Source: a virus | Taxonomy: Duplodnaviria; Heunggongvirae; Uroviricota; Caudoviricetes | DNA: 52,137 nucleotides | Reading direction: 5' to 3' (one strand) | Virus record (IMG/VR): IMGVR_UViG_2778261534_000002 | In this document: positions 8,667 through 45,577 of the stretch, piece after piece | Layout of the letters: every line of letters starts with the position of its first letter | Position numbering within the stretch: position 1 is the stretch's first letter | Program-made: the position numbers and the translations under genes | The notes under the pieces: model-generated | Databases searched by the model: none | What the model was told of the DNA's origin: nothing | Seen by the model: only the letters and a program-made list of their open reading frames with translations

Positions 8667-8753
8667 AGTGTATTTATATACACTGTTGATCCTGGTGGAT
8701 GGGATCGAGTAGGATCGCGGTCACTGCTCCGGTAGCGACTGCCAAAAAAGCAA

Positions 8754-10214: not shown

Positions 10215-10439
10215 ATGGTTAATGCCAATCCTTGCTCACGCCCAGAATTCATCTGGCGTTTCCACTCCCTGCAAAAACACTGCGATCACTTCGCAATTGC
10301 CGCAACCGAAAAAGAAGCCCGTTCTCTGATCCCTGATCAGTATGGTGTTCTTACTGGTCGTTTCTCTACTTCCCCACAACCAAACACTAATCCCTGGTAT
10401 CGCAATATTACCAATCCCGGAATTGCGGAGGCACACTGA
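10215..10439 (+). CDS. Icd-like small protein of immunity module 1
   Basis: 74 aa; paralog of 49339..49554 (shared EFIWRF and AATE-EARS motifs); stop overlaps ant start (TGATG). Confidence 0.5.
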   Translation: MVNANPCSRPEFIWRFHSLQKHCDHFAIAATEKEARSLIPDQYGVLTGRFSTSPQPNTNPWYRNITNPGIAEAH

Positions 10440-23280: not shown

Positions 23281-23357
23281 GATGGTGTAGCTCAGTAGGA
23301 TAGAGCAGCAGCCTTCTAAGCTGTCGGTCGGTGGTTCGAATCCACCCACCATCGCCA
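23281..23357 (+). tRNA. tRNA-Arg (anticodon UCU)
   Basis: 77 nt; 7-bp acceptor stem GATGGTG/CACCATC, anticodon loop CTTCTAA, T-loop GGTTCGAATCC, 3' CCA. Confidence 0.9.
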
Positions 23358-23362
23358 ATTTA

Positions 23363-23449
23363 GGGGAGTTAGTCCGTAGGGGTAGCGGGGTAGACTGTAA
23401 ATCTACTGTCATTGCGACTCGGGTGGTTCGACTCCATCACTCCCCACCA
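23363..23449 (+). tRNA. tRNA-Tyr (anticodon GUA), long variable arm
   Basis: 87 nt; acceptor GGGGAGT/ACTCCCC, anticodon arm GTAGA-CTGTAAA-TCTAC, variable-arm stem GTC/GAC, 3' CCA; D-arm atypical. Confidence 0.7.
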
Positions 23450-23453
23450 AATT

Positions 23454-23529
23454 GCCGGTTTAGCTCAGTTGGTAGAGCGCCTGCCTTGTAAGCAGGATGT
23501 CAGCGGTTCGAGTCCGTTAACCGGCACCA
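23454..23529 (+). tRNA. tRNA-Thr (anticodon UGU)
   Basis: 76 nt; TAGCTCAGTTGGTAGAGC D-arm, anticodon loop CTTGTAA, T-loop GGTTCGAGTCC, 3' CCA. Confidence 0.9.
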
Positions 23530-23580
23530 ACACAACAGGTAAGGGCATTCTCCCTTATGGGGCTTGGCTTAAATGCATCG

Positions 23581-23609
23581 AGTGCTCTTACCGTTGTGAT
23601 GAAGTGCAG
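23581..23609. repeat. 30-nt spacer repeat, copy 1
   Basis: AGTGCTCTTACCGTTGTGATGAAGTGCAG; related copies at 23811 and 24112. Confidence 0.5.
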
Positions 23610-23724
23610 CTCTTTGAAGCAACCAGAAGATAAGCATCTGGCTTCACAACATAAACCGCAGGAACGACCAATAAACGGTAGTCCGTATGGAGAACACCCC
23701 GTTGAGGAAGAGGCCTGGCCGGAA

Positions 23725-23741
23725 CCGTAACCGGCACCACA
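23725..23741. repeat. duplicated tRNA-Thr 3' end fragment
   Basis: CCGTAACCGGCACCAC repeats the 3' end of tRNA-Thr (CCGTTAACCGGCACCA, 23514-23529) about 210 nt downstream. Confidence 0.45.
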
Positions 23742-23810
23742 ACGTTGAGAACACTGGCGTAACGGGGTCATATCCCAATCTATGAATAAATGTTGCGTTG
23801 CAGCGTGACA

Positions 23811-23844
23811 ACCAGTGTTCTCAACATTGTGGTGAATGCACAGG
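23811..23844. repeat. 30-nt spacer repeat, copy 2
   Basis: CCAGTGTTCTCAACATTGTGGTGAATGCACAGG; its first 16 nt are also the reverse complement of AACGTTGAGAACACTGG at 23741-23757 (large stem-loop). Confidence 0.45.
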
Positions 23845-23931
23845 CTGATGTGCCGCAACTACAGTAGTGCGCGCTTTGCGGGGCTTGCTACAACCCTGTG
23901 TCGGAGTTCAGCACCGACCATCACAATCACT

Positions 23932-24018
23932 GGAGAGTAGGGAGCATGGTGCTCAAGCGGTCTTGAAAACCGTCCCATTGCGCAAGCGATGATGGTTCGA
24001 TTCCATTACTCTCCGCCA
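23932..24018 (+). tRNA. tRNA-Ser (anticodon UGA), long variable arm
   Basis: 87 nt; acceptor GGAGAGT/ACTCTCC, anticodon loop CTTGAAA, T-loop GGTTCGATTCC, 3' CCA. Confidence 0.85.
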
Positions 24019-24111
24019 GTGCAACGTTAAGAGTATTTGGCTAATTAAGCGAATGCCGGAAGCAGAACCGGATCACCAAATGCGTACAGGCGTCATCGCC
24101 GCCCAGCCAGC

Positions 24112-24142
24112 CAAGTGCTCTTACCATTGCGGTGAATGCGGC
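24112..24142. repeat. 30-nt spacer repeat, copy 3
   Basis: CAAGTGCTCTTACCATTGCGGTGAATGCGGC. Confidence 0.5.
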
Positions 24143-24281
24143 TAAGCGCACGCGGAACAGTTAAAACAATCCTCCTTAGTGGTTAAGTCAAACATCCCGG
24201 CGTTAATTGTTAACTGGTTAACGTCACCTGGAGGCACCAGGCACCGCAGCTTTTTTATTCGGTAAATAATGGAGTGAGAGG

Positions 24282-24518
24282 ATGCAGAACAATCCGAACA
24301 AATGTCGAACGCTATGGGTGCGGTTATATATTTATGTCGTCCTCTGTTTGATTGTGTCACTGGTTCTGTATGTTTGGCTTTTGCCAAATATGATCTCATC
24401 TGACAGCACAATACTTGTATTGTTGGGAGTCCTTCTCGCGCTCATTTACCCGGCTTTTGCAGTAGTCTTTTTTCGTGAAAAAACCAGGAAATTGATTAAT
24501 GAAAAAAACGTTGATTAG
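24282..24518 (+). CDS. small integral membrane protein
   Basis: 78 aa, two hydrophobic helices, SD GGAGTGAGAGG before ATG; overlaps start of the SPFH lipoprotein gene. Confidence 0.45.
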   Translation: MQNNPNKCRTLWVRLYIYVVLCLIVSLVLYVWLLPNMISSDSTILVLLGVLLALIYPAFAVVFFREKTRKLINEKNVD

Positions 24519-25326
24519 TGCAGCGATTATTTTTGGTTCTTTATGTCTGACCGGATGCGATCGGGTAGAGCCAGGTAACGTAGGGATCAAAGTAAATAAG
24601 CTGGGGGATGATAAAGGTATCGGTGAAGTAGTTGGCGTTGGTCGCTACTGGACAGGCTTGAATACTGAAGTTTATATCTTCCCGACCTTTAAGCAAATGA
24701 AGACATACGATGAGCCGTTCAGCTTCCAGATGAGCGACGGAACAACCATTGGTTACCACATCGGCGTAGCCTACAAGGTTGATCCAGCAAAAGTCACAAC
24801 GGTATTTCAGACCTATCGCAAAGGTGTAGATGATATTACTGATACCGATCTACGCCAGAAGGTTGCAGATGCTCTGAACCGGTTAGCCAGCAAAATGACC
24901 ACCGACAAATTTATCGACGGTGGCAAATCTGAATTGCTTGATGCAGCCCTTAAAGACATTCAGGAAGAAATGACGCCCATCGGTATTCAGGTAATGAGCC
25001 TCTCATATGTGGGCAAGCCGGAGTACCCGCCAACCGTTATCGACAGCATTAATGCCAAAGTCACGGCGAACCAGAAAACTCTGCAACGCGAGCAGGAAGT
25101 CAAGCAACGCGAAGCAGAAGCCAACATGCTGCGCGCAGAAGCTGCTGGACAGGCCGATGCCATTCGCACAAAAGCCCAGGCTGAAGCTGATGCCATTCGT
25201 TTACGCGGTGAGGCTCTGCGCCAGAACCCCGGCGTTATGGAGTTGGAAGCGATCAACAAATGGAACGGAACGCTACCGCAGTATATGACCAGTAATACCG
25301 CTGTTCCGTTTGTTCCGGTGAAATAA
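24499..25326 (+). CDS. SPFH/band-7 (prohibitin-like) lipoprotein
   Basis: 275 aa; signal peptide with lipobox LTGC; SPFH-like core followed by Ala/Glu-rich coiled-coil tail. Confidence 0.65.
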   Translation: MKKTLISAAIIFGSLCLTGCDRVEPGNVGIKVNKLGDDKGIGEVVGVGRYWTGLNTEVYIFPTFKQMKTYDEPFSFQMSDGTTIGYHIGVAYKVDPAKVTTVFQTYRKGVDDITDTDLRQKVADALNRLASKMTTDKFIDGGKSELLDAALKDIQEEMTPIGIQVMSLSYVGKPEYPPTVIDSINAKVTANQKTLQREQEVKQREAEANMLRAEAAGQADAIRTKAQAEADAIRLRGEALRQNPGVMELEAINKWNGTLPQYMTSNTAVPFVPVK

Positions 25327-25339
25327 CCAAATAGATAAC

Positions 25340-25471
25340 ATGATGGAATTTTGGACGTTTGCCGACAAGAACCCTTGGTGGACATTTTTATTTCTGCTGG
25401 TGGTTGCATATGGGGTCGAGCAAGCAGCAAAAGCCTTACGCGGTCCTGGCAAAAAGCGTAAGCGGAATTAA
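25340..25471 (+). CDS. small membrane protein (43 aa)
   Basis: MMEFWTFADKNPWWTFLFLLVVAYGV...KKRKRN; single TM helix with basic tail; below the ORF-track length cutoff; found by eye. Confidence 0.3.
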   Translation: MMEFWTFADKNPWWTFLFLLVVAYGVEQAAKALRGPGKKRKRN

Positions 25472-25480
25472 CAGTAATCT

Positions 25481-25556
25481 GGCCCTTTAGCTCAGTGGTT
25501 AGAGCTGGCGACTCATAATCGCACGGTCACCGGTTCAAGTCCGGTAGGGGCCACCA
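25481..25556 (+). tRNA. tRNA-Ile2 (anticodon CAU, lysidine type) or tRNA-Met
   Basis: 76 nt; very close to E. coli ileX-type sequence as recalled (GGCCC.TTAGCTCAGTGGTTAGAGC...CTCATAA...GGTTCAAGTCC...GGGGCCACCA). Confidence 0.85.
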
Positions 25557-26010: not shown

Positions 26011-26586
26011 ATGTTAATGGCGAACGATAACGCATATGCAGAAGAAGATCTCATTTTGAGTGACTTCATAGGGAAGCGGGAACGCTGGACCCAAAAGCGA
26101 GAGGAACTTTACGCCTCATTAGTTCGCAAAGGCGTCAATATCGAAACCGCACAGAGCGGCGATATGACAGTGGTAAGCGTTGGATTGCACGGTGTAAGCG
26201 TGTCAGCAATCAATCATGAGCCATACGTTGCGTTATCCGAGTCAATGGTAAGGTTAGTTAAGTTCCTGAAGTACACAGAAGCGAATAATGTAATCATTGG
26301 CAAAAAGAATATCCCTTTTTCCTCGGCTTTTTACTGGATGATGAAAGGGCTTGATGCCCGGCGGACATCATGGCCTAAAGGGAGCTATATATCGATGTTC
26401 CGTGGCAGCATTGGCAGCAAAGAAAAGCTCTTCGAATTCTTGCCGGAAGAGGCATTCGATATTGTGGAAGGGTGCGATGTGATGGTGATGCCTCGCCTGG
26501 TAATGATGAATGGGGATTTACAGGCGCAGACAGACTGGTTTGCAACTGGTGTGGATATTATCGCGACTGACTGGGAGGCTTTCTGA
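26011..26586 (+). CDS. hypothetical protein with C-terminal DUF2829-like domain
   Basis: 191 aa; C-terminal ~90 aa carry KGLDARRTSW ... IIATDWEAF signature. Confidence 0.45.
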   Translation: MLMANDNAYAEEDLILSDFIGKRERWTQKREELYASLVRKGVNIETAQSGDMTVVSVGLHGVSVSAINHEPYVALSESMVRLVKFLKYTEANNVIIGKKNIPFSSAFYWMMKGLDARRTSWPKGSYISMFRGSIGSKEKLFEFLPEEAFDIVEGCDVMVMPRLVMMNGDLQAQTDWFATGVDIIATDWEAF

Positions 26587-26978: not shown

Positions 26979-27086
26979 TATTAGGTGTTTAATATTAATT
27001 TTCTAATACAATCATCTTTTTACCAGTCTATACAGTTTTAACATTCTCATTATCATCCCCTCGGTCATTTCCTGCCCGGGGGATTA

Positions 27087-27479
27087 ATGGAACAAATCAG
27101 CAGCGCAGAAATTGCGGATATCATGATCAGGGCTGACTGCTATCTGACAGTCACTGAAATTACCACTCTCGCCAAAGAAAAATACCCTCATCTCCATGTT
27201 TCACGAGTAAGTGTAACTAACATCATTCGTCATTTTGTTCGTTCAAGCAGGGCAATCTGTGAGCTGGATGATCGTGTGTATCCACGAAAATACTGGCTAC
27301 ATGGTCTGAACGGATATCAGTTCAAGGTGCGCGGGCGCACGCCTGAATACGGTAGCTTACTGGTTAAAAACTGTAGCAGGAAATCAGTCGAACAGGCGCG
27401 AAAAGAGCAACGAGAGCTGGTGGACATGGCGAATAAGCTGTGGAATGCCGCCGTTAAAAAGCGTGGTGTTGCTTTATGA
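27087..27479 (+). CDS. Lpa-like late promoter activator (tentative)
   Basis: 130 aa immediately upstream of pacA and overlapping its start, the position of lpa (gene 10) in P1; no motif-level support. Confidence 0.3.
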   Translation: MEQISSAEIADIMIRADCYLTVTEITTLAKEKYPHLHVSRVSVTNIIRHFVRSSRAICELDDRVYPRKYWLHGLNGYQFKVRGRTPEYGSLLVKNCSRKSVEQARKEQRELVDMANKLWNAAVKKRGVAL

Positions 27480-28840
27480 GTCTGGTTAATTGGGAGGAGC
27501 ACCGCGCCCGCTTTATAGCGTTGCGTGAAGAAAAAGGGATCACTGTAAAGGAATACTGTGAGGAGCATGGCCTTAGCTTCAATACAGCCAGAAAGCATCT
27601 CAATATGAAAAAAAATGAGGTGCGGTCGCAGGTAAAGACAACAAAAAAAAGCACCAAATCACCTGAAAAAAAACGGGCGGGAAGAGCAACAAAAAAGCTG
27701 GAAGAGGGTGCAGAAAAAACAAAATTTACAGAAATTGACAATTCGCAGGGCGCAGGTTCTTTCCGAAGTATGCCGAGAAAGAAAACTTCGGATCATGAAA
27801 ATAATGCAAATAATAACAATGAGATAAAAGAATCTGTCAGGAGATCATTGCGCGAAAAAATGGCGAAAATGATCCCCGAAGAAGATAAAAGCGCCCCAAA
27901 AATTGAGGGATCTTCTGCAATGATCCCTGACGGTGCTGTGCAGCGTGCCACATTGCCCACTACGAATGTGGCTCGCGATATGATGAAGAACGGCGCAGAA
28001 GAACACCTGCGGTTAGCAATTCAAATGGCGCAAGAGCGCGCACTTCAGTATCAAAGCATTGTTGATCAGGAGGCCGAACGTCTACAGGCGGAAATAGACG
28101 CCTTGGGCGATAAAGAGCCAGAAGGAATGCACCCTGGGCAGCGCCTTCTCGGTCTAATCAGTGACGCGGCCTACTACATGAATGATTTTATCAGTAGGTT
28201 GGCAGCTATATATCAGTCCGAACAAAAGCTGCGACAGGGGGATGAAAAGCTTCGTCAGAGCGCTCGCCAGCAAGCATTCAAAGAGGCTGAGGCCAGAGAA
28301 AAACTCGAATTAGCACGCCTACAGGCCGAACAGCGTGGCAAAGAGATTGAATATCGCATTGGCGCTGACGCACGCGCAGCCAGAGTTATCGCCGCCGCTA
28401 TACGTATGCGTGAGCGCGAGGAACTGGATGATATCGGTGTTGCTGAATACATCGAGCGCCAGGGGGTCAGCGTCCCGGCTATCCTCGCGGCGCGCGCGGC
28501 GAAAGCTATCACTCTTCTCGAACCACCTGTTTCTGACGTCAATGATGTTGATGATGAACAGCTGGACAAAGAGGCAAGGGAGTTTGCAACGCTTCAGGCT
28601 AACCATCCGCAATGGCTGGCAGAGCGCCGGGCGGATGTGGCAACCATTGTTGAAGAATTGGGGTGCGGAGATTACGACCGCAATGGCGAGCGTAAAGCTG
28701 GAGAATTCGAGGCCAACGACGAAGAGCTGGATATTGACCCTTCGGCAACGGCTGAAATTTACGGTGATTATGATGTATCTGATGCAGGGTATGACGCCGG
28801 AGATGATGATATCGCGATAGAACCGCCGGAGGATGATTAA
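27476..28840 (+). CDS. pacA: terminase small subunit PacA
   Basis: 454 aa; N-terminal HTH-like region, Lys-rich linker, acidic C-terminus; directly precedes and overlaps large terminase gene; contains GATC-rich candidate pac site. Confidence 0.7.
   Translation: MSLVNWEEHRARFIALREEKGITVKEYCEEHGLSFNTARKHLNMKKNEVRSQVKTTKKSTKSPEKKRAGRATKKLEEGAEKTKFTEIDNSQGAGSFRSMPRKKTSDHENNANNNNEIKESVRRSLREKMAKMIPEEDKSAPKIEGSSAMIPDGAVQRATLPTTNVARDMMKNGAEEHLRLAIQMAQERALQYQSIVDQEAERLQAEIDALGDKEPEGMHPGQRLLGLISDAAYYMNDFISRLAAIYQSEQKLRQGDEKLRQSARQQAFKEAEAREKLELARLQAEQRGKEIEYRIGADARAARVIAAAIRMREREELDDIGVAEYIERQGVSVPAILAARAAKAITLLEPPVSDVNDVDDEQLDKEAREFATLQANHPQWLAERRADVATIVEELGCGDYDRNGERKAGEFEANDEELDIDPSATAEIYGDYDVSDAGYDAGDDDIAIEPPEDD
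27790..27926. other. candidate pac site (cluster of Dam GATC hexamers)
   Basis: five GATC-containing hexamers (GGATCA, AGATCA, TGATCC, GGATCT, TGATCC) within about 135 bp in the 5' part of pacA; P1 pac is a cluster of TGATC(A/G) hexamers inside pacA. Confidence 0.4.
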
Positions 28841-30348
28841 TGGCTGGCGGGCGCAAGATTAAATGCGTCACCAGCGATCCACGCTGGCGCGATATGGTAA
28901 TCAAATACCGCTACAACTTTACCCAGGCTGTTGTCGATATTTTTGGGATGTTCCCCTCCCACCAGCAGCAGCAGATCATTCAGTCAGTGCAGGAAACGGG
29001 GAGTAGGACTACCGTCACGTCCGGACACGGAACGGGGAAGTCGTCCCTTACCGCGATGTTGCTGTTGATTTTTATGATCCTGTTCCCCGATGCCCGTGTC
29101 ATCATTGTTGCTAACAAGATAGGCCAGGTAAAAACAGGCGTATTCAAATACGTTAAACAGTATTGGGCGAATGCAGTTAAGCGTCATGGGTGGTTGCAGA
29201 CCTATTTTGTCCTCTCTGACACCATGTTTTATGAGCGCTCCCGTAAGGGGATTTGGGAAGTTCTCTGCAAAGGTTATCGACTCGGCAACGAAGAAGCGCT
29301 GGCGGGGGAACACGCGGCACATTTGCTTCTAATTCTGGATGAAGCATCTGGTATATCTGATAAGGCGATCGGCGTAATGACCGGTGCTCTTACTGAAGAA
29401 GATAACCGGATGTTGATGCTATCCCAGCCAACAAGGCCAAGTGGTTATTTCTACGATTCGCACCATTCTCAAGCAAAAACCCCAGACAACCCGAAAGGGA
29501 TCTGGACAGCAATTGTTCTTAACTCGGAAGAATCACCGTTCGTCACACCACAATTCATCAAGCAGAAGCTTCTGGAATATGGTGGGCGCGATTCTATTGA
29601 GTATATGGTCAAGGTGCTTGGTCAGTTCCCACGAGAAATTAACGGCTATTTGCTTGGTCGTGATGAATGCGATCGCGCTGCTCGCCGCAAGGTGTTGTTG
29701 GAGAAAAACTGGGGATGGGTGGCAACGGCTGACGTTGGTAATGGGCGAGATAAGTCGGTCCTCAACATCTGCAAGGTATCTGGTCACAGGGATAAGCGGC
29801 GCGTTGTTAACTTTAAGGTAATGGAGATGCCTGGCACTATGGACCCATTGGCCTTTGCTGACTTTATATATAACGAATGTACGCCGGAAAAATACCCGAA
29901 TATAACAATCGCGGTTGATGCCGATGGTTTTGGTTCTGATACGTGTGCGCAGTTGGTGCGTCGTGGTGCGAACCCGGTACGTATTCGGTGGGGAAAACCC
30001 ATGTTTGCGAACAAAGACAGGGAGCGATTTGTTAATCAGCGTGCCTACGCAAATATTATGGCGCGTGATGCCATAAAGTCAGGGCGTATGCGGATAGACA
30101 GTGACCCTAAAACGGCAGAGCAAGCGTCAAAAATCCCCTTTTTACTGAATGAGGAAGGGAAAATGGCGATGATGCGCAAAGAGCACATGCGGCAAAAGCT
30201 AAACATCAAATCGCCTGACCGATGGGATACCTACTGCTTCACTATGCTGGTGGACTATGTGCCTGCTAATGAAGATATTGGTGCCGAAATGGCAACTTTC
30301 CGAGATCAGGTTCTGGCGGATATCGAAATGCCAGATCTGGATATATAA
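28840..30348 (+). CDS. pacB: terminase large subunit PacB
   Basis: 502 aa; Walker A SGHGTGKSS, Walker B-like LLLILDEASG; C-terminal nuclease-like region. Confidence 0.85.
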   Translation: MAGGRKIKCVTSDPRWRDMVIKYRYNFTQAVVDIFGMFPSHQQQQIIQSVQETGSRTTVTSGHGTGKSSLTAMLLLIFMILFPDARVIIVANKIGQVKTGVFKYVKQYWANAVKRHGWLQTYFVLSDTMFYERSRKGIWEVLCKGYRLGNEEALAGEHAAHLLLILDEASGISDKAIGVMTGALTEEDNRMLMLSQPTRPSGYFYDSHHSQAKTPDNPKGIWTAIVLNSEESPFVTPQFIKQKLLEYGGRDSIEYMVKVLGQFPREINGYLLGRDECDRAARRKVLLEKNWGWVATADVGNGRDKSVLNICKVSGHRDKRRVVNFKVMEMPGTMDPLAFADFIYNECTPEKYPNITIAVDADGFGSDTCAQLVRRGANPVRIRWGKPMFANKDRERFVNQRAYANIMARDAIKSGRMRIDSDPKTAEQASKIPFLLNEEGKMAMMRKEHMRQKLNIKSPDRWDTYCFTMLVDYVPANEDIGAEMATFRDQVLADIEMPDLDI

Positions 30349-30368
30349 AGCCCCGCGATGCGGGGCCG
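30349..30368. terminator. bidirectional intrinsic terminator
   Basis: GCCCCG-cgatg-CGGGGC flanked by A/T-rich sequence, between convergent pacB and c1-locus gene. Confidence 0.6.
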
Positions 30369-30375
30369 GTTGTGA

Positions 30376-31413
30376 TTACCAGAGCTTCGCGGCGTACTGC
30401 GTTTGGGGGAATGTGTATCCGTAACGTTCTTCGATTGCTTTGCCGTATTTTTTACGAGCTTCATTCAGTTTAATGCCGGTCAGGTCGTCTCCAGAGGCCA
30501 TCATTACGTCTAACAATTCCAGATCCATTTTATCCAGCCTTGCCATTGCTTCACGTGATGTACGTATCTTACGCTCAATGATATGGCGAATAGCCGGATC
30601 GGCATCCTCCAGCATCTTAGCGGATTTCTGCTTAAGGCTTTCATTGCGAATATCGATGTTCCTTAAGATGTACGACTTCGCAACGTAGCTTGGCTGGTGT
30701 TTTTCCAGGTCACGAACACGATATAAGTTAAAATCGCCGAGAAGGCTGCAAGGTACCGATTCGACGCCAGAATAAATTGTAATGCTCCGGCGTTCACCAA
30801 CATTATTGACAACGGGGATCGTTGTCTTCGGTAGTCTTGCGAAAACCAATGCGCCATGTGCGCCAACTCTAAAGCGAGAAAGGGCATTGCTGCCTTCGAT
30901 GTTTGTTGTCAGCACAACATCTGTATATGCCTCTTTACGCGCCCGGTAGATCTCGCCTTCAGGCTCAGCTTCAAAGAAGCGCTGTTCTTCTTCAAGAGCA
31001 CCTACAATTTGAGAAAAAACCCTATTTTTCAGGCTTTTCTTTATGATTTTGTCGTATTTTTTGAGCAATTGTTCACGTGTAAATGTACGTGTTGTTGTAG
31101 CGCTTTGCACAACAACATGCGTGCTTTGATTGGTGTCCTCAATGATGAATGGGATCGGAGAATATACAGACTCAACAATGTTCGACGCTTTGCCGTCGGC
31201 ATCGCGGCACATGTCAACGAAGGCTTTCCATTCAGCAAGACATTTTTCAGCTTCTTCTAATATGTTTTGGTCATGCGTTAATGCAACATGGCGGAATTCC
31301 TCGCCAGCATAACTGGTATCATGGAAAACAGAGTTTGCGACCACCAGCTCTTTCCACCGTTCAGCGGTTTGCAGGAACCGTTTGTACTCTTTCTCGATCG
31401 ACTTCTTACTCAT
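30376..31413 (-). CDS. c1-locus protein, candidate immunity regulator of unknown family
   Basis: 345 aa at the position of c1/coi in P1 (between pacB and the lox-equivalent site); no similarity to P1 C1 as I recall it; operator-like motif 15-29 nt upstream of its start. Confidence 0.5.
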   Translation of the reverse strand: MSKKSIEKEYKRFLQTAERWKELVVANSVFHDTSYAGEEFRHVALTHDQNILEEAEKCLAEWKAFVDMCRDADGKASNIVESVYSPIPFIIEDTNQSTHVVVQSATTTRTFTREQLLKKYDKIIKKSLKNRVFSQIVGALEEEQRFFEAEPEGEIYRARKEAYTDVVLTTNIEGSNALSRFRVGAHGALVFARLPKTTIPVVNNVGERRSITIYSGVESVPCSLLGDFNLYRVRDLEKHQPSYVAKSYILRNIDIRNESLKQKSAKMLEDADPAIRHIIERKIRTSREAMARLDKMDLELLDVMMASGDDLTGIKLNEARKKYGKAIEERYGYTFPQTQYAAKLW

Positions 31414-31623: not shown

Positions 31624-31655
31624 TAACTTTAAATAATTGGCATTATTTAAAGTTA
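31624..31655. other. rox: rox-type recombinase target site
   Basis: TAACTTTAAATAAT-TGGC-ATTATTTAAAGTTA: perfect 14-bp inverted arms; reverse complement equals the published rox sequence as I recall it; 150 bp upstream of the recombinase gene. Confidence 0.85.
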
Positions 31656-38394: not shown

Positions 38395-39544
38395 GGTCCA
38401 CCTCATGCTTTTCAGCCACCAGCGGCAATAAAGCCCTGGCCATCTTATGAACCAATAGTGCATCAATAATGCCAAGTGTATGCCCCGGCTTAATGTTTAA
38501 TGCCGCCTCAAGGTGACACCTTTCCAAGCCACTTTTCTCGGCTTGTTTATGATGATCTGGCGTAATAACGTCGCCTAAAACACGGCTAATTCTTTCTCGT
38601 AATTGCTGGGTGCCAGCACACTTGATCGCTGTATCGTGGAGACGGTTAACCAGTTCGCGATAAACATGCGGCTTAATTCGGATACGTTCACCGGTGACGC
38701 CCTTTCCTGGCGCTGGCACCGAACTATCCGGAATATCCGGATAGTTGCCAGCCAGTCTACGCAAAACGGCCTTAACAGCCTCAATACGGTCATCATCGCA
38801 ATTTTCCAGAGTATCTATGCGATCGAGCATGATGATGGCGTTATCAATATCAGGATTGCCGGTCCACTCATTACCGCGATTGGATTCGGCAGCCTGGTTG
38901 CCGCGTACTGGTTGATTATCGGCTTTACCCAGTCTATCGTTGCTGCATGAATGCCCTTCCAGCCAGGCCAATGCTTGTCGCATGAAATACGCAATATGTT
39001 TGCCGTGGTAATCGTCTTCATTGATGTGAAAAGCGATACTGCGGATGTATTCAATTGCGTTTTCAATAGCCTCCGGCGTTATCGGCGCTGACATATTTTG
39101 ATTTTGGAGTGCCAAGACGCGGCTGGCATCCTCAACACCTTTAACGGCATCTGCGCAGTAGTTATAGCGATTGCATTCCACTAACTTCTGCTTGAGGTTT
39201 TCAATTGCTTGCGCGACATCAGCCTGCATTACCGGAACTGGCGGAGTGGTATATAGTTTTCGGCATTTGTTTATCCAACCGGCATGGTCAGGCGTGTCTG
39301 TAAAGCGCAAATCGTTTTCGTAGCCCTCACGACTACGTTCTTTCCATTCCGTCCACGGAACACCGCTATTCCAAGTGGGGCGAGTGCAGGACTGATACAG
39401 AACAGGTTCAGCTTCCAGCGCTGCCAGAGCAATCCGTGCCAGTTCTTCCGCTTCTTCTGCTGGCAGTACAACGTTGCTACCAGGTCCGTATGTTTCGCGC
39501 CACTGCTTGATTGCCAGCAGTCGCTCTTTGGTAATAGTGGTCAT
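38378..39544 (-). CDS. hypothetical protein
   Basis: 388-aa ORF in leftward operon; no recognizable motif. Confidence 0.5.
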   Translation of the reverse strand: MTTITKERLLAIKQWRETYGPGSNVVLPAEEAEELARIALAALEAEPVLYQSCTRPTWNSGVPWTEWKERSREGYENDLRFTDTPDHAGWINKCRKLYTTPPVPVMQADVAQAIENLKQKLVECNRYNYCADAVKGVEDASRVLALQNQNMSAPITPEAIENAIEYIRSIAFHINEDDYHGKHIAYFMRQALAWLEGHSCSNDRLGKADNQPVRGNQAAESNRGNEWTGNPDIDNAIIMLDRIDTLENCDDDRIEAVKAVLRRLAGNYPDIPDSSVPAPGKGVTGERIRIKPHVYRELVNRLHDTAIKCAGTQQLRERISRVLGDVITPDHHKQAEKSGLERCHLEAALNIKPGHTLGIIDALLVHKMARALLPLVAEKHEVDHANES

Positions 39545-39750
39545 TTGTTAATCCTCAAAACTTTATGCCCGGGCGCAAAAGCACGCGTTTTGTCTTTGCT
39601 TATGCGCCAGCCATCCTTGCGCGCCTCTTTTGCACAACCAGACCATGACGTACCGATATACTCACCGAAGTCTGGCACTGGATATACACCTTCCGTACAC
39701 TGGCGGCAGTCACAATAGAGATGCATGGTGTAACTTGCGGCAATAGCCAT
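39541..39750 (-). CDS. small Cys-rich protein
   Basis: 69 aa from ATG 39750; CDCRQC...C motif; RBS region AAAGGAGAGTGATATGG duplicated at the next gene. Confidence 0.4.
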   Translation of the reverse strand: MAIAASYTMHLYCDCRQCTEGVYPVPDFGEYIGTSWSGCAKEARKDGWRISKDKTRAFAPGHKVLRINK

Positions 39751-39751
39751 A

Positions 39752-39946
39752 TCACTCTCCTTTAGTGCGCAAATGGTTTTTCCAGCGGTTTTGCGCCGCG
39801 CTGGGCTTTTTGCAAAAACCACAATCCATCATCCCGTAATATTTCATCAACCCCATCCGTCGGTTGCTGAGTCTCACCCACTGCCAGACGCCAGGAGCGT
39901 TTCTACGAACTAACAGAATCTTTGCTTTACGGTTGTTGGTTGCCAT
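39752..39946 (-). CDS. small basic protein
   Basis: 64 aa from ATG 39946; same duplicated RBS; MDCGFC motif. Confidence 0.35.
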   Translation of the reverse strand: MATNNRKAKILLVRRNAPGVWQWVRLSNRRMGLMKYYGMMDCGFCKKPSAAQNRWKNHLRTKGE

Positions 39947-39947
39947 A

Positions 39948-40709
39948 TCACTCTCCTTTGATGCGAATGCCAGCGGCGCGTGGCACATTAACTTCCACGA
40001 TGCGCACAGTTGGTTTGTACATCTCAATCGCTGTCAGCCAGTCAGCGCCGGTCATATGCTTTTCTGCATCGCCATTAGTCCATTGAACCGGCACACCAAT
40101 AGCTTTCATCGCAATTTCTATTTCCCCGGCAATGGCGCTTTTCCCGCAACCAGTAAAACCAGAGACAACGACAAGAACTTCGCCTTTGGCTGGTTTTATT
40201 TCCCGTGCTTCCAGTTCTGCAATGCGCTTCTCTGCGGCTTCCAGCTTCTCGCGCATATCGTCAACGTACTCGACCAGAGATCCGCCAGCAGGAATTTCGC
40301 ATTCCTCGACCAGTTGGAAGTAGATATCAGCTGCGGCCCGTGTGTTGCTATGCCTAGCGTCGCCCATCTCACCTTCACGAAGAGCATCGCGTTCGGCGGT
40401 AAGATTGGCTATTTTGCTGTCTTTGCCTTCCAGCTCAACGCGCAGCCTCCCAACCGTAAGCGCAATATCCTCGTTCTCCTGGTCGCGGCGTTTGATGTAT
40501 TGCTGGTTTCTTTCCCGTTCATCCAACAATGCCAGCGCGATATCTGGCGAAAAGTGCTTCATAAAATCGTTAAGCGCATTAATTCGCTGATCGAAAGGCA
40601 TTACAGGTGCTTCACCGGCAATTTTTGTTTTTTCAGCGATTTCACGAAGCTTTTGATAATCAATCTGGCTCACTGGTTGCCTCCTTTGCGGAGTTGCGCT
40701 TCGATGCAC
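39948..40709 (-). CDS. coiled-coil protein with C-terminal Walker A-like motif
   Basis: 253-aa ORF (start uncertain); central coiled coil; GFTGCGKS P-loop-like motif near C-terminus. Confidence 0.45.
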   Translation of the reverse strand: MHRSATPQRRQPVSQIDYQKLREIAEKTKIAGEAPVMPFDQRINALNDFMKHFSPDIALALLDERERNQQYIKRRDQENEDIALTVGRLRVELEGKDSKIANLTAERDALREGEMGDARHSNTRAAADIYFQLVEECEIPAGGSLVEYVDDMREKLEAAEKRIAELEAREIKPAKGEVLVVVSGFTGCGKSAIAGEIEIAMKAIGVPVQWTNGDAEKHMTGADWLTAIEMYKPTVRIVEVNVPRAAGIRIKGE

Positions 40710-40909
40710 GAAAAAAAAGACTCCCGAGTATGACTGTTAAGAGCTGGTGCGAACGCCGCGTTAAGAACGGCAGCATCACAGCCGTCATCAATATAGAGCG
40801 CAATTTTTTTCTCCAGGCGCGCTTTGGCTTCCTGCAACTGCATACCCCGGCACGCACGCGGGATATAATCAGCAATTTGAGCGATAGCTTTTTCGTTCTG
40901 TTTAAACAT
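40670..40909 (-). CDS. hypothetical protein
   Basis: 79-aa ORF, overlapping neighbours in operon. Confidence 0.35.
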   Translation of the reverse strand: MFKQNEKAIAQIADYIPRACRGMQLQEAKARLEKKIALYIDDGCDAAVLNAAFAPALNSHTRESFFSCIEAQLRKGGNQ

Positions 40910-41105
40910 GCTTCACCTCGATAGGCTTGATGGTGTCTAACAGCAGTCGACGGCGCGTATTTTCTGCAAAGTGGCGGCGTCCGGTATCTTTGTGGTAAAA
41001 CTCATTTTTGCCGACGACCCACATCCGCTCTGTTTGGTGCAGTTTTTTTACCTGCGGACCGTCTTTGGTGATCACGGTGCCGGTATGGGTTTTTACGATT
41101 GTCAT
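40902..41105 (-). CDS. hypothetical protein
   Basis: 67-aa ORF in operon. Confidence 0.35.
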   Translation of the reverse strand: MTIVKTHTGTVITKDGPQVKKLHQTERMWVVGKNEFYHKDTGRRHFAENTRRRLLLDTIKPIEVKHV

Positions 41106-41188
41106 GCCACTACCTCTTCGAACAGATGAACGAGACAGGCCGATGCTCGTCCACCTGAAAAACTGACGATTTGATGCATACTCACGGT

Positions 41189-41881
41189 TTATTCCTGAAT
41201 GCGCTTAAACTCGATTACCCATACCCACGGGTTAGATAGCCAGTTATCCTGCCCGTAAATACTGCGCCAGATATCACCAAAACCAACGCGATAAACAGCT
41301 TCCGGCGGCGTAATTTTGTACATCGCCGGAGATGCGCCTTCTGCTTTAGCATCTGCCTCGCTCATATCACGCAGCCGTTCCACACGCACGTCGGTAATTT
41401 CCAGCAAAATGCGCGATGCCCAGCGCGGCATGTGAATTGATGGACGCCACCCGCCATCAAATTTTTCATTCACAGTGTGAGGTTTCCAGTCGGCATCATC
41501 GGGTATCGACCACAAGCCGTAATCACCCGGCTTTTGCTCACAACTGGCCCGATAAATCCTTGCTGCGTTCTTCTCATCGCCACGACAAAGGTTGTCGTTC
41601 CAGTCCACACTGCAACCATCCTCATTGCCTAATATCGCCCACGCCTCACGGACCCATATGCGATCACCAACGTTACCGAACGGGCATAAACCATGTTCAG
41701 GTGCATCCATAACGTGGGTATAGACACCATTGCGTTTCTTTGTCGGTTTACGGATAACCAGGCAGTTATCGGCCCTGACATTTTTTACAGGTCGGCGAGT
41801 CTGCGTCTTCCTTCCTTCGAGGATGGCCCTGACCATCTCATCGTTAAAAATCATCCCGCGTTCTTTCATTTTTTGATCCAC
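41189..41881 (-). CDS. ASCH-domain protein
   Basis: 230 aa; MIFNDEMVRAILEGRKTQTRR block typical of ASCH/PUA-like domains; start may be an internal Met. Confidence 0.5.
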   Translation of the reverse strand: MDQKMKERGMIFNDEMVRAILEGRKTQTRRPVKNVRADNCLVIRKPTKKRNGVYTHVMDAPEHGLCPFGNVGDRIWVREAWAILGNEDGCSVDWNDNLCRGDEKNAARIYRASCEQKPGDYGLWSIPDDADWKPHTVNEKFDGGWRPSIHMPRWASRILLEITDVRVERLRDMSEADAKAEGASPAMYKITPPEAVYRVGFGDIWRSIYGQDNWLSNPWVWVIEFKRIQE

Positions 41882-41885
41882 CTCA

Positions 41886-44200: not shown

Positions 44201-44505
44201 TTTGTTTTCTCCTGTCTGAACATCACTATCATCAGGTCGCCTTTTGTCGCTATCCTCGCTGTTGTGCCTGGTTCAATGCTGCCAAGTTCAAATGCGTCAT
44301 AGAACGCTTCTAATGCCTTCTGGCGTAGTTCCTGTTTGCGCCGTTTTTTCCACTGTTTCAGGAAAATGGAACCCAGCCATCGCCATGTACGGGACATGAT
44401 GTAAAGCCAACCGAGAAGTGCCAGACCGGTATTTAGGGCCGTATCGAGCGTTATCGTGGTGTCGATATTCACTGGCTGCTTCCTTTGCGAATCTGTTCCG
44501 CCCAT
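44197..44505 (-). CDS. hypothetical membrane protein
   Basis: 102 aa; hydrophobic helix LALLGWLYIMS followed by basic stretch. Confidence 0.4.
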   Translation of the reverse strand: MGGTDSQRKQPVNIDTTITLDTALNTGLALLGWLYIMSRTWRWLGSIFLKQWKKRRKQELRQKALEAFYDAFELGSIEPGTTARIATKGDLMIVMFRQEKTK

Positions 44506-45254
44506 TCTTCAAGGGATTTCTCCGCATATTCACCGGACAGGCCATCAAGCGGATGCGGTTCATTAGCCAACTCTTCTTTCGCTGACAAAATCATGCGTGT
44601 AACGTCGAAAACTTCACGCAAAGACTTATTGATAAATCCGTGATTGAACGCAGCAGCAAGACGGCTTGCGGTGTAGTTAATCCCCTCGTTGCGTGCCTCC
44701 GCACGTACTTCAGCCAGGAAAGCGTCGGTGGCCGGAGTTTCAGGAATCCGTCTCCTCATCAGTTCTATTGCATGATTGAACCCGAAATCTTCCGCGAGAG
44801 ATACGTCATCCATATTGTCATTGTCATCCTCAATATCCCGTGATTCTGGAATTGCAGACTTTATTCCCGCATTCTCCGCCGCCAGCGCCGCGCAATTACC
44901 CTCCAGCTCTGCAATGCGCTGTTTTGCGGCATCAAGTTCAATCGATAATTTTTCCAACTGCTCTTTATGCTTCTTGTATTCCTGATATGCGTGCCAGGAC
45001 TGACCTTTGCGCACACTATCAGTAATATCAGTAATCTGTTCTGGTGTTAGCGTGGTCAGTGGCTGTGCTGGAAAAATCATCACTTGCCCGGCATCCCAAT
45101 CAAAACCCACCTGAATTGACTGAACCTCAACTGATGGTGTTGAACCGATGCGACCAGGCGAATGAACAACGATCGTTACATCCATATCGCGACGATGGCT
45201 GTGGTTGTTGGACAAAATACGATTCACCAACTCAGAAAATTTGGAAAATTTCAT
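44469..45254 (-). CDS. coiled-coil paralog A (Ea22-like family)
   Basis: 261 aa from ATG 45254 (ATGA overlap with upstream gene); shares coiled coil ([15 protein letters not shown]) and C-terminal block ([19 protein letters not shown] ... EQIRKG) with 45574..46242 and 46239..46748. Confidence 0.5.
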
Positions 45255-45577
45255 GCTGATTCCCTTTGCTCTTCCTGGATAATGTTGTTGCAATCTTTCA
45301 CGCACTCGTTGCAGATGAAAACGTTGTCCCCGGCAATTAACTTTTTAACGGTGTGCTGGGATTTGTTACAGAAGCTGCAATAAAGCGTTGGACTGGCTGA
45401 TACGGATGGTGCGCCAGATGTCAGCCGCGCGATGTCGTTCTTGCGACGCAATATCACACGGCTGCACTCGACCAGCATCTCCGGGGATATCTTCTCCTCC
45501 GTAGCGAGCGTTTCTAATCGTTCGAGTATGTGGAAGGCTTTTTCCTGGGTAATTGCAGAATGCGATGTGGTCATCAT
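45251..45577 (-). CDS. protein with ClpX-type zinc-finger domain
   Basis: 108 aa; C-terminal [35 protein letters not shown] closely matches the ClpX N-terminal C4 zinc-binding domain pattern. Confidence 0.6.

Follow-up and report, generated by a model that had tools for sequence, protein, structure and literature searches.

The packaging site (pac) of phage P1 was reportedly worked out by Sternberg and Coulby. P1 pac occupies 161 bp within pacA and comprises seven TGATC(A/G) repeats (HEX4 plus HEX3), an integration host factor (IHF) site, and a central cut (PMC10028697, PMC11260489). The P1 pacase has been proposed to bind hemimethylated pac and to cut it only after further Dam methylation, and synonymous recoding of the repeats lowers packaging about 9-fold (PMC10028697, PMC11260489). 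In the annotation of NC_005856, P1 pac extends from 90723 to 90904, with cleavage at 90804-90813. Here, we analyzed a 52,137-nucleotide (nt) stretch of viral DNA (IMG/VR record IMGVR_UViG_2778261534_000002, referred to below as the window), in which a cluster of five GATC sites lies inside a pacA gene closely related to that of Escherichia phage D6, a P1 relative. Comparison with related sequences indicates that this cluster, at 27788-27928, is probably the recognition array of a D6-type pac, formed by five asymmetric repeats that can be methylated by Dam.

The gene is a 1365-nt open reading frame (ORF) on the plus strand (27476-28840). An initial annotation of this DNA had called it pacA, and it is a true homologue: it is 99% identical to D6 pacA, and what comes after it (pacB, c1, and rox) has the same order as in P1. 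The same annotation had placed GATC at 27791, 27843, 27871, 27909, and 27922, within about 135 bp in the 5' third of the gene. All five positions proved exact, and the sites occupy nt 316-450 of the ORF, a span of 135 bp. On the top strand their hexamers read, in order, GGATCA, AGATCA, TGATCC, GGATCT, and TGATCC, with spacings of 52, 28, 38, and 13 bp.

GATC is not enriched across the window, since 194 sites (one per 269 bp) were counted, compared with 204 ± 15 in shuffled sequences. The pacA cluster is nevertheless the tightest group of five GATC sites both in the 52 kb window and in the complete D6 genome (91,159 bp); the second-tightest independent groups span 270 and 331 bp, respectively. 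Comparable clusters at other positions had been named in the initial annotation as evidence that would speak against a pac site; neither the window nor the complete D6 sequence contains one. When the identical scan was run on 54 kb of P1 as a positive control, the experimentally mapped pac ranked first with a five-site span of 134 bp, and the next cluster outside pac spanned 261 bp. However, when sites were placed uniformly at random, a cluster of 135 bp or less turned up somewhere in 22% of trials for 52 kb and in 30% for 91 kb. Density was therefore not relied on, since the scan statistic is not significant (P = 0.22 to 0.30). Once both strands were read, four of the five sites were found to be ATGATC, on the bottom strand at 27791 and 27843 and on the top strand at 27869 and 27920. 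Four such motifs in 129 bp have a P value of about 0.001 to 0.002, for a motif that was picked post hoc. The evidence beyond chance comes only from this submotif, from position, and from conservation.

Nine D6-type pacA genes, with 56 to 100% PacA identity, were aligned. The consensus of the GATC sites over these relatives, normalized for orientation, is the 9- to 10-mer AATGATCCC(Y). The initial annotation had listed the hexamers TGATCC, GGATCA, AGATCA, and GGATCT as variants of the P1 hexamer. The letters were right, but the sites are not loose variants of that hexamer; the unit is the asymmetric AATGATCCC(Y), present in both orientations, and this shared motif had been missed because one strand only was read. 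The repeats run minus, minus, plus, minus, plus, and the copies in the window match the 10-mer consensus at 7, 8, 9, 8, and 10 of 10 positions, respectively.

Repeat 1 (27788-27797, minus strand; pacA nt 316) reads CATGATCCGA on the bottom strand, agrees with AATGATCCCT at 7 of 10 positions, and encodes D-H (GAT CAT). Its GATC is kept in eight of the nine D6-type pacA genes and is lost only in the Enterobacter relative with 56% identity. Repeat 2 (27840-27849, minus strand; nt 368), which reads AATGATCTCC on the bottom strand (8/10), codes for (R/G)-S, in a codon phase other than that of repeat 1. Most of the relatives with 68 to 87% identity carry the exact AATGATCCCT at this site and one carries AATGATCCCC (9/10), and GATCA is invariant in all nine aligned sequences. 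Repeat 3 (27868-27877, plus strand; nt 396) is AATGATCCCC (9/10) and encodes M-I-P; the heptamer AAATGAT, which starts at 27867, is invariant in 9/9 sequences. Repeat 4 (27906-27915, minus strand; nt 434) reads GAAGATCCCT on the bottom strand (8/10) and is kept in eight of nine sequences. In the window it is the only site without TGATC, and relatives with 73 to 87% identity have AATGATCCCT or AATGATCTCT there. Repeat 5 (27919-27928, plus strand; nt 447) is the consensus copy, AATGATCCCT (10/10), and again encodes M-I-P. It is the sole exact match to the 10-mer in the window, and its AATGATCCC is invariant in 9/9 aligned sequences, forming the longest invariant run of the variable segment. If one mismatch is allowed and GATC is kept, the whole window contains matches only at 27535, 27868, and 27919, all of them in the 5' part of pacA.

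In this alignment, nt 141-520 holds the most variable 30-nt windows of pacA outside its 3' end, with 13 to 43% of positions invariant in most of them. Only 13% of the tetramers in this segment are kept in three relatives with 68 to 74% identity, compared with five of five GATCs (binomial P = 4e-5). Similarly, 40 of 50 positions inside the five 10-mers are invariant, compared with 141 of 330 outside them (P = 5.5e-7), and the same holds for third-codon positions (14/17 inside the repeats versus 34/110 outside; P = 8e-5). All of these P values are approximate, since the relatives compared are not phylogenetically independent. The GATCs occur in all three codon phases, as GAT CAT (D-H), xGA TCA ((R/G)-S), and ATG ATC (M-I), and replacements between Arg and Gly at sites 2 and 4 leave GATC intact. 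Because three codon phases, both strands, and silent positions are conserved, the constraint acts on DNA and not on protein. These data establish that the repeats exist, that they are under DNA-level selection, and that their position and GATC core are common to the pac region of P1 relatives.

The comparison was then extended beyond the D6 type. A scan of genome contigs with a single PacB gave only 2 loci; it was replaced by a PacB profile searched against IMG/VR, which gave 80 loci, and plasmid, genome, and metagenome loci were added. Matches to PacA were found in 140 plasmid records. In each of the pacA lineages sampled, GATC sites are present within nt 140-520, and in most they are enriched over expectation. 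When this interval was pooled over 16 lineages, GATC was the top enriched tetramer (110 observed versus 26.4 expected; P = 6e-34), followed by ATCA. The sites lie at nt 195-229 and 325-376 in P1 and at nt 154-237, with a 12-nt period, and 363-379 in the Pantoea type. The pacA of another P1-supergroup lineage (L080; IMGVR_UViG_3300027985_000978) has 14 sites at nt 187-520. The Enterobacter lineage with 56% identity (L011) has eight units in two arms, at nt 157-181 and 380-471, and the D6 cluster corresponds by alignment to the right arm. Lineage L138 (Ga0207713), with 44% PacA identity, carries six TGATCCCC-type units, of both orientations, at nt 154-238 and 339; five are packed into 88 bp, and the sixth follows after about 100 nt. 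Lineages L007 and L134-L136 have the exact AATGATCCCT at three or four sites of the array.

Every lineage retains the GATC core, but the sequences on either side of it are not the same. TGATCA is found in the P1 and Pantoea types, a third flank type, GCGATCA, accounts for most sites of L080, and TGATCC(C) is found in the D6 types, L011, and L138. In L011 and L138 the motif is kept and its positions have turned over, which is the pattern expected of a functional array of binding sites. Among the other phage-plasmids of the P1 supergroup (Pantoea, Leclercia/Citrobacter, Enterobacter, and metagenomic), most are clearly two-armed, and pac is unannotated in the records examined. DNA-level conservation in diverged relatives and GATC clustering in nearly all of the lineages sampled give comparative support to the candidate pac that the initial annotation proposed.

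These same observations bear on explanations other than pac. A view in which the GATCs have no function as DNA and result from conserved peptide motifs (D-H, G-S, and M-I-P) or from chance has very little to commend it, even though density alone is compatible with chance (P = 0.22 to 0.30), each of the two best copies reads M-I-P in frame, and the left-arm GATCs of the P1 and Pantoea types follow a 12-nt, in-frame xxDH periodicity. Under this explanation, one 10-mer would not be expected to be conserved on both strands, in three codon phases, and over unrelated peptides, nor would GATC be expected to survive amino acid replacements, with third positions preferentially invariant. The motif also persists at nonhomologous positions in L011 and L138, and GATC is the top enriched tetramer over the 16 lineages. 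DNA-level conservation proves function and not which function, so the array could instead be a Dam- or SeqA-dependent regulatory element, acting for example through control of pacA/pacB expression by methylation state or through postreplicative sequestration, with pac elsewhere. GATC clusters are classic SeqA/Dam regulatory targets, the P1 record lists Dam sites within the cre regulatory region, and the two-arm layout of P1 is missing in the D6 array. We consider this unlikely, however, as a conserved 9- to 10-mer with specific flanks in two orientations is more than SeqA or Dam requires, and as the flanks vary from one PacA lineage to the next but the sites hold their position in pacA. In addition, the repeat array at the same location in P1 is the experimental pac site (PMC10028697), and no sigma-70-like promoter overlaps the array; a reading of the array as a promoter or terminator was likewise rejected. 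The scan covered sigma-70-like promoters only and found none in 27060-29000; the only match (27029-27056) lies upstream of lpa.

The chief reservation is that the functional site may comprise more than this cluster. The array would then be one arm or a vestige of D6 pac, with essential recognition or cut elements outside it (for example at 27724-27741, at 27535-27544, or at another locus), and the five sites alone would be insufficient or dispensable. In its favor, the D6 cluster aligns to the right one of two subclusters in the Enterobacter relative, whose left arm is at nt 157-181. The lineages with no such left arm are exactly those in which pacA nt 63 carries a 9/10 copy, and 50 bp upstream of repeat 1 there is an invariant island. 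Against this, all five sites are individually conserved, silent positions included, which argues that they are not decaying. The island is missing from L138, and D6 contains no other cluster of GATC or of the 10-mer. On balance, this explanation is also improbable.

The two elements that it invokes were examined individually. The possible outlying sixth copy (27535-27544, minus strand; nt 63), which reads AGTGATCCCT on the bottom strand (9/10), is 253 bp upstream of repeat 1. It is present in all D6-type sequences except L011, which has three copies at nt 157-181. Its conservation is uninformative because it lies within conserved sequence coding for a helix-turn-helix (HTH), and whether it belongs to the array is uncertain. 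The island, TTTACAGAAATTGACAAT (27724-27741, no strand assigned), precedes repeat 1 by about 50 bp and is a speculative candidate for the cut or bending region. TTACA and TGACAA are invariant there in 9/9 D6-type sequences amid a hypervariable stretch, with a perfect TTGACA inside, and the Enterobacter relative has the island halfway between its two arms of repeats. Homology of the island to the IHF/cut segment of P1 was considered and rejected; BLASTP pairs AEKTKFTEI with P1 AEKQRVNAV, and the MAFFT alignment of the linker differs. A role as the cut or bending region is therefore speculative and is proposed with low confidence, since the island is absent from L138, the lineage with 44% identity, and its alignment to the P1 cut region depends on the method. 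Also speculatively, the island and the nt 63 copy may both be parts of the site, with the cut falling outside the interval flagged by the initial annotation. The stretch at 27600-27725, where other lineages have the left repeat arm, contains A-tracts that encode a Lys-rich linker (A8 at 27607, 27643, and 27668; A6 at 27692 and 27714). Their spacings are 22 to 36 bp, and their helical phase is not clean.

Besides the chance density of the cluster and the shared ancestry of the relatives, several further points weigh against assigning the array to pac. A pac site is annotated in neither D6 GenBank record (AY753669 and MF356679), and pacA nt 64-315 contains no GATC. The P1 hexamer is not matched exactly at any of the five sites, and neither TGATCA nor TGATCG occurs in 27700-28000. 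The P1 repeats form arms of four and three copies around a spacer of about 90 bp, where the cut site lies, whereas a single five-copy cluster is found here; because the related L011 and L138 are two-armed, the D6 array may correspond to one arm. No conserved IHF consensus is found in or beside the array. A scan for WATCAANNNNTTR with at most one mismatch gave no match in 27023-28048, a result of consensus scanning that is compatible with binding of IHF or HU. Contig ends proved uninformative as a proxy for the pac cut, with loci stored in chunks and 0 of 15 metagenome contigs ending in pacA. Finally, the transfer of mechanism from P1 is an extrapolation, because PacA is only 21% identical to P1 PacA. 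A perfect match to the IHF consensus at 28049-28061 was rejected as a candidate site because it is not conserved in relatives. Full-text literature searches returned nothing on D6 pac; their coverage of key D6 literature was incomplete, so an earlier description is possible.

With these points taken into account, a pac array remains the reading that we favor, and its operation would follow the P1 scheme. The PacA/PacB pacase would bind the repeats on concatemeric DNA and would cut nearby once the GATC adenines had been methylated by host Dam or by the Dam-family enzyme of the phage. Headful packaging would then run toward pacB, c1, and rox. In P1 biology, the terminally redundant part of the first headful includes a lox-type site. 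By analogy, rox would fall in the terminal redundancy of the first D6 headful and would allow circularization by Dre; this fits the position of rox, 3.7 kb downstream of the array, like P1 lox at 4.0 kb. For D6, pacase binding, methylation control, the position of the cut, and the direction of packaging are all inferred from P1. In one draft genome (IMG 2537562191), two D6-like contigs (the start of L062 and the end of L122) break at 27795-27804, with a 10-nt overlap (ATGAAAATAA) directly 3' of GATC site 1. This single case could be an assembly accident or the trace of a physical DNA end.

The genes around the array are those of D6. The window as a whole is about 99% identical to D6, positions 27000-30400 are 99.3% identical (AY753669 and MF356679), and the order lpa-pacA-pacB-c1-rox in the D6 records is the lpa-pacA-pacB-c1-lox order of P1. 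The lpa gene (27087-27479) is followed by pacA, which encodes the small terminase (pacase A) and holds the repeats within its variable linker. At 27476-27479 (ATGA), the stop codon of lpa and the start codon of pacA overlap, and the two genes therefore look translationally coupled. PacA matches P1 PacA over its full length (21% identity; E = 7e-10) and has a weak HTH_23 match at its N terminus. The pacB gene (28840-30348, plus strand) encodes the large terminase (pacase B), the presumed nuclease-ATPase partner, with 56% identity to P1 PacB and a Terminase_6N match below the Pfam cutoff. Both pacA and pacB are present and intact. Downstream lie c1 (30376-31413, minus strand) and the rox site (31624-31655, plus strand), the D6 counterpart of P1 lox, which is an exact match to the annotated rox of AY753669 and is on the same strand as pacA. 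D6 also encodes a D12-class (Dam-family) adenine methylase (E = 2e-56), the gene for which (D6_63) lies outside the 52 kb window.

Other features of the window were recorded as well. Four TGATC-containing sites lie within 51 bp at 10284-10335 (GCGATCAC ... CTGATCCCTGATCAG), in sequence matching the 5' end of D6 repL (lytic replication), and may be a Dam-sensitive origin or promoter element. Three GATCs lie within 29 bp at 8688-8716 (TTGATCC, GGGATCG, and AGGATCG); their placement in a homologue of the head-processing protease gene (pro) is only provisional, as the coordinate offset behind it proved wrong for this part of the window. Just upstream of lpa, the ORF at 26011-26586 (D6 orf6, annotated as hypothetical) has a Pfam Tad2-like domain (Thoeris anti-defense 2; E = 1e-9), which suggests an anti-defense gene. 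Five tRNA genes are found at 23281-25556 (Arg-TCT, Tyr-GTA, Thr-TGT, Ser-TGA, and Met-CAT). The D6 record lists tRNAs for Ser, Thr, and Asn, and positions 23360-25474 have no long BLAST match to D6; the tRNA cassette therefore differs between these near-identical phages. Long BLAST matches to D6 are also lacking at 39256-41883 and 44485-45268, where the surroundings are 92 to 99% identical, and these two segments are probably accessory-gene replacements.

A broader interpretation, which we put forward only tentatively, is that Dam-gated pac arrays are general to the P1 supergroup, with a fixed GATC core and flanks that diversify with the PacA lineage to give mutually orthogonal specificities. 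D6 would then have one arm of oriented repeats and a pacase geometry unlike the symmetric, two-armed, IHF-bent complex of P1. If the array is confirmed as pac, the packaging signal would be defined for the D6 group, whose phage-plasmids are widespread in Escherichia coli and Salmonella. The array would also offer a second Dam-gated pac specificity, probably orthogonal to that of P1, for phagemid and transduction tools, a purpose for which P1 pac engineering is already in use (PMC10028697). More generally, a DNA signal embedded in coding sequence would be seen to coevolve with its reader protein, with the methylation core frozen, the flanks drifting, and the positions turning over. For annotation, a scan of pacA nt 140-520 for GATC repeats would flag a candidate pac in most P1-like elements.

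The array therefore combines likeness to P1 pac with clear differences from it. In both phages the repeats lie in a variable linker in the 5' part of pacA (nt 195-376 of 1194 nt in P1 and nt 316-450 of 1365 nt here), the tightest five-site GATC spans are nearly equal (134 bp in P1 and 135 bp here), and pacB, c1, and the recombination site lie downstream (rox at 3.7 kb here, lox at about 4 kb in P1). A TGATC core is present in four of the five D6 sites, and the P1 and D6 genomes each carry a phage-encoded Dam-family methylase. In contrast, the D6 unit is an asymmetric 9- to 10-mer in mixed orientation, whereas the P1 unit is the near-palindromic hexamer TGATC(A/G), and lpa overlaps the pacA start here, whereas P1 has an 85-bp gap with the late promoter LPpac. 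To our knowledge, the pac sites of the headful phages P22, SPP1, and Sf6 contain no GATC repeat arrays, and we know of no Dam gating in them. The D6 array nevertheless resembles those of P22 gene 3, SPP1 gene 1, and Sf6 in that the packaging signal would lie within the coding sequence of the small terminase and would be recognized by the terminase encoded there.

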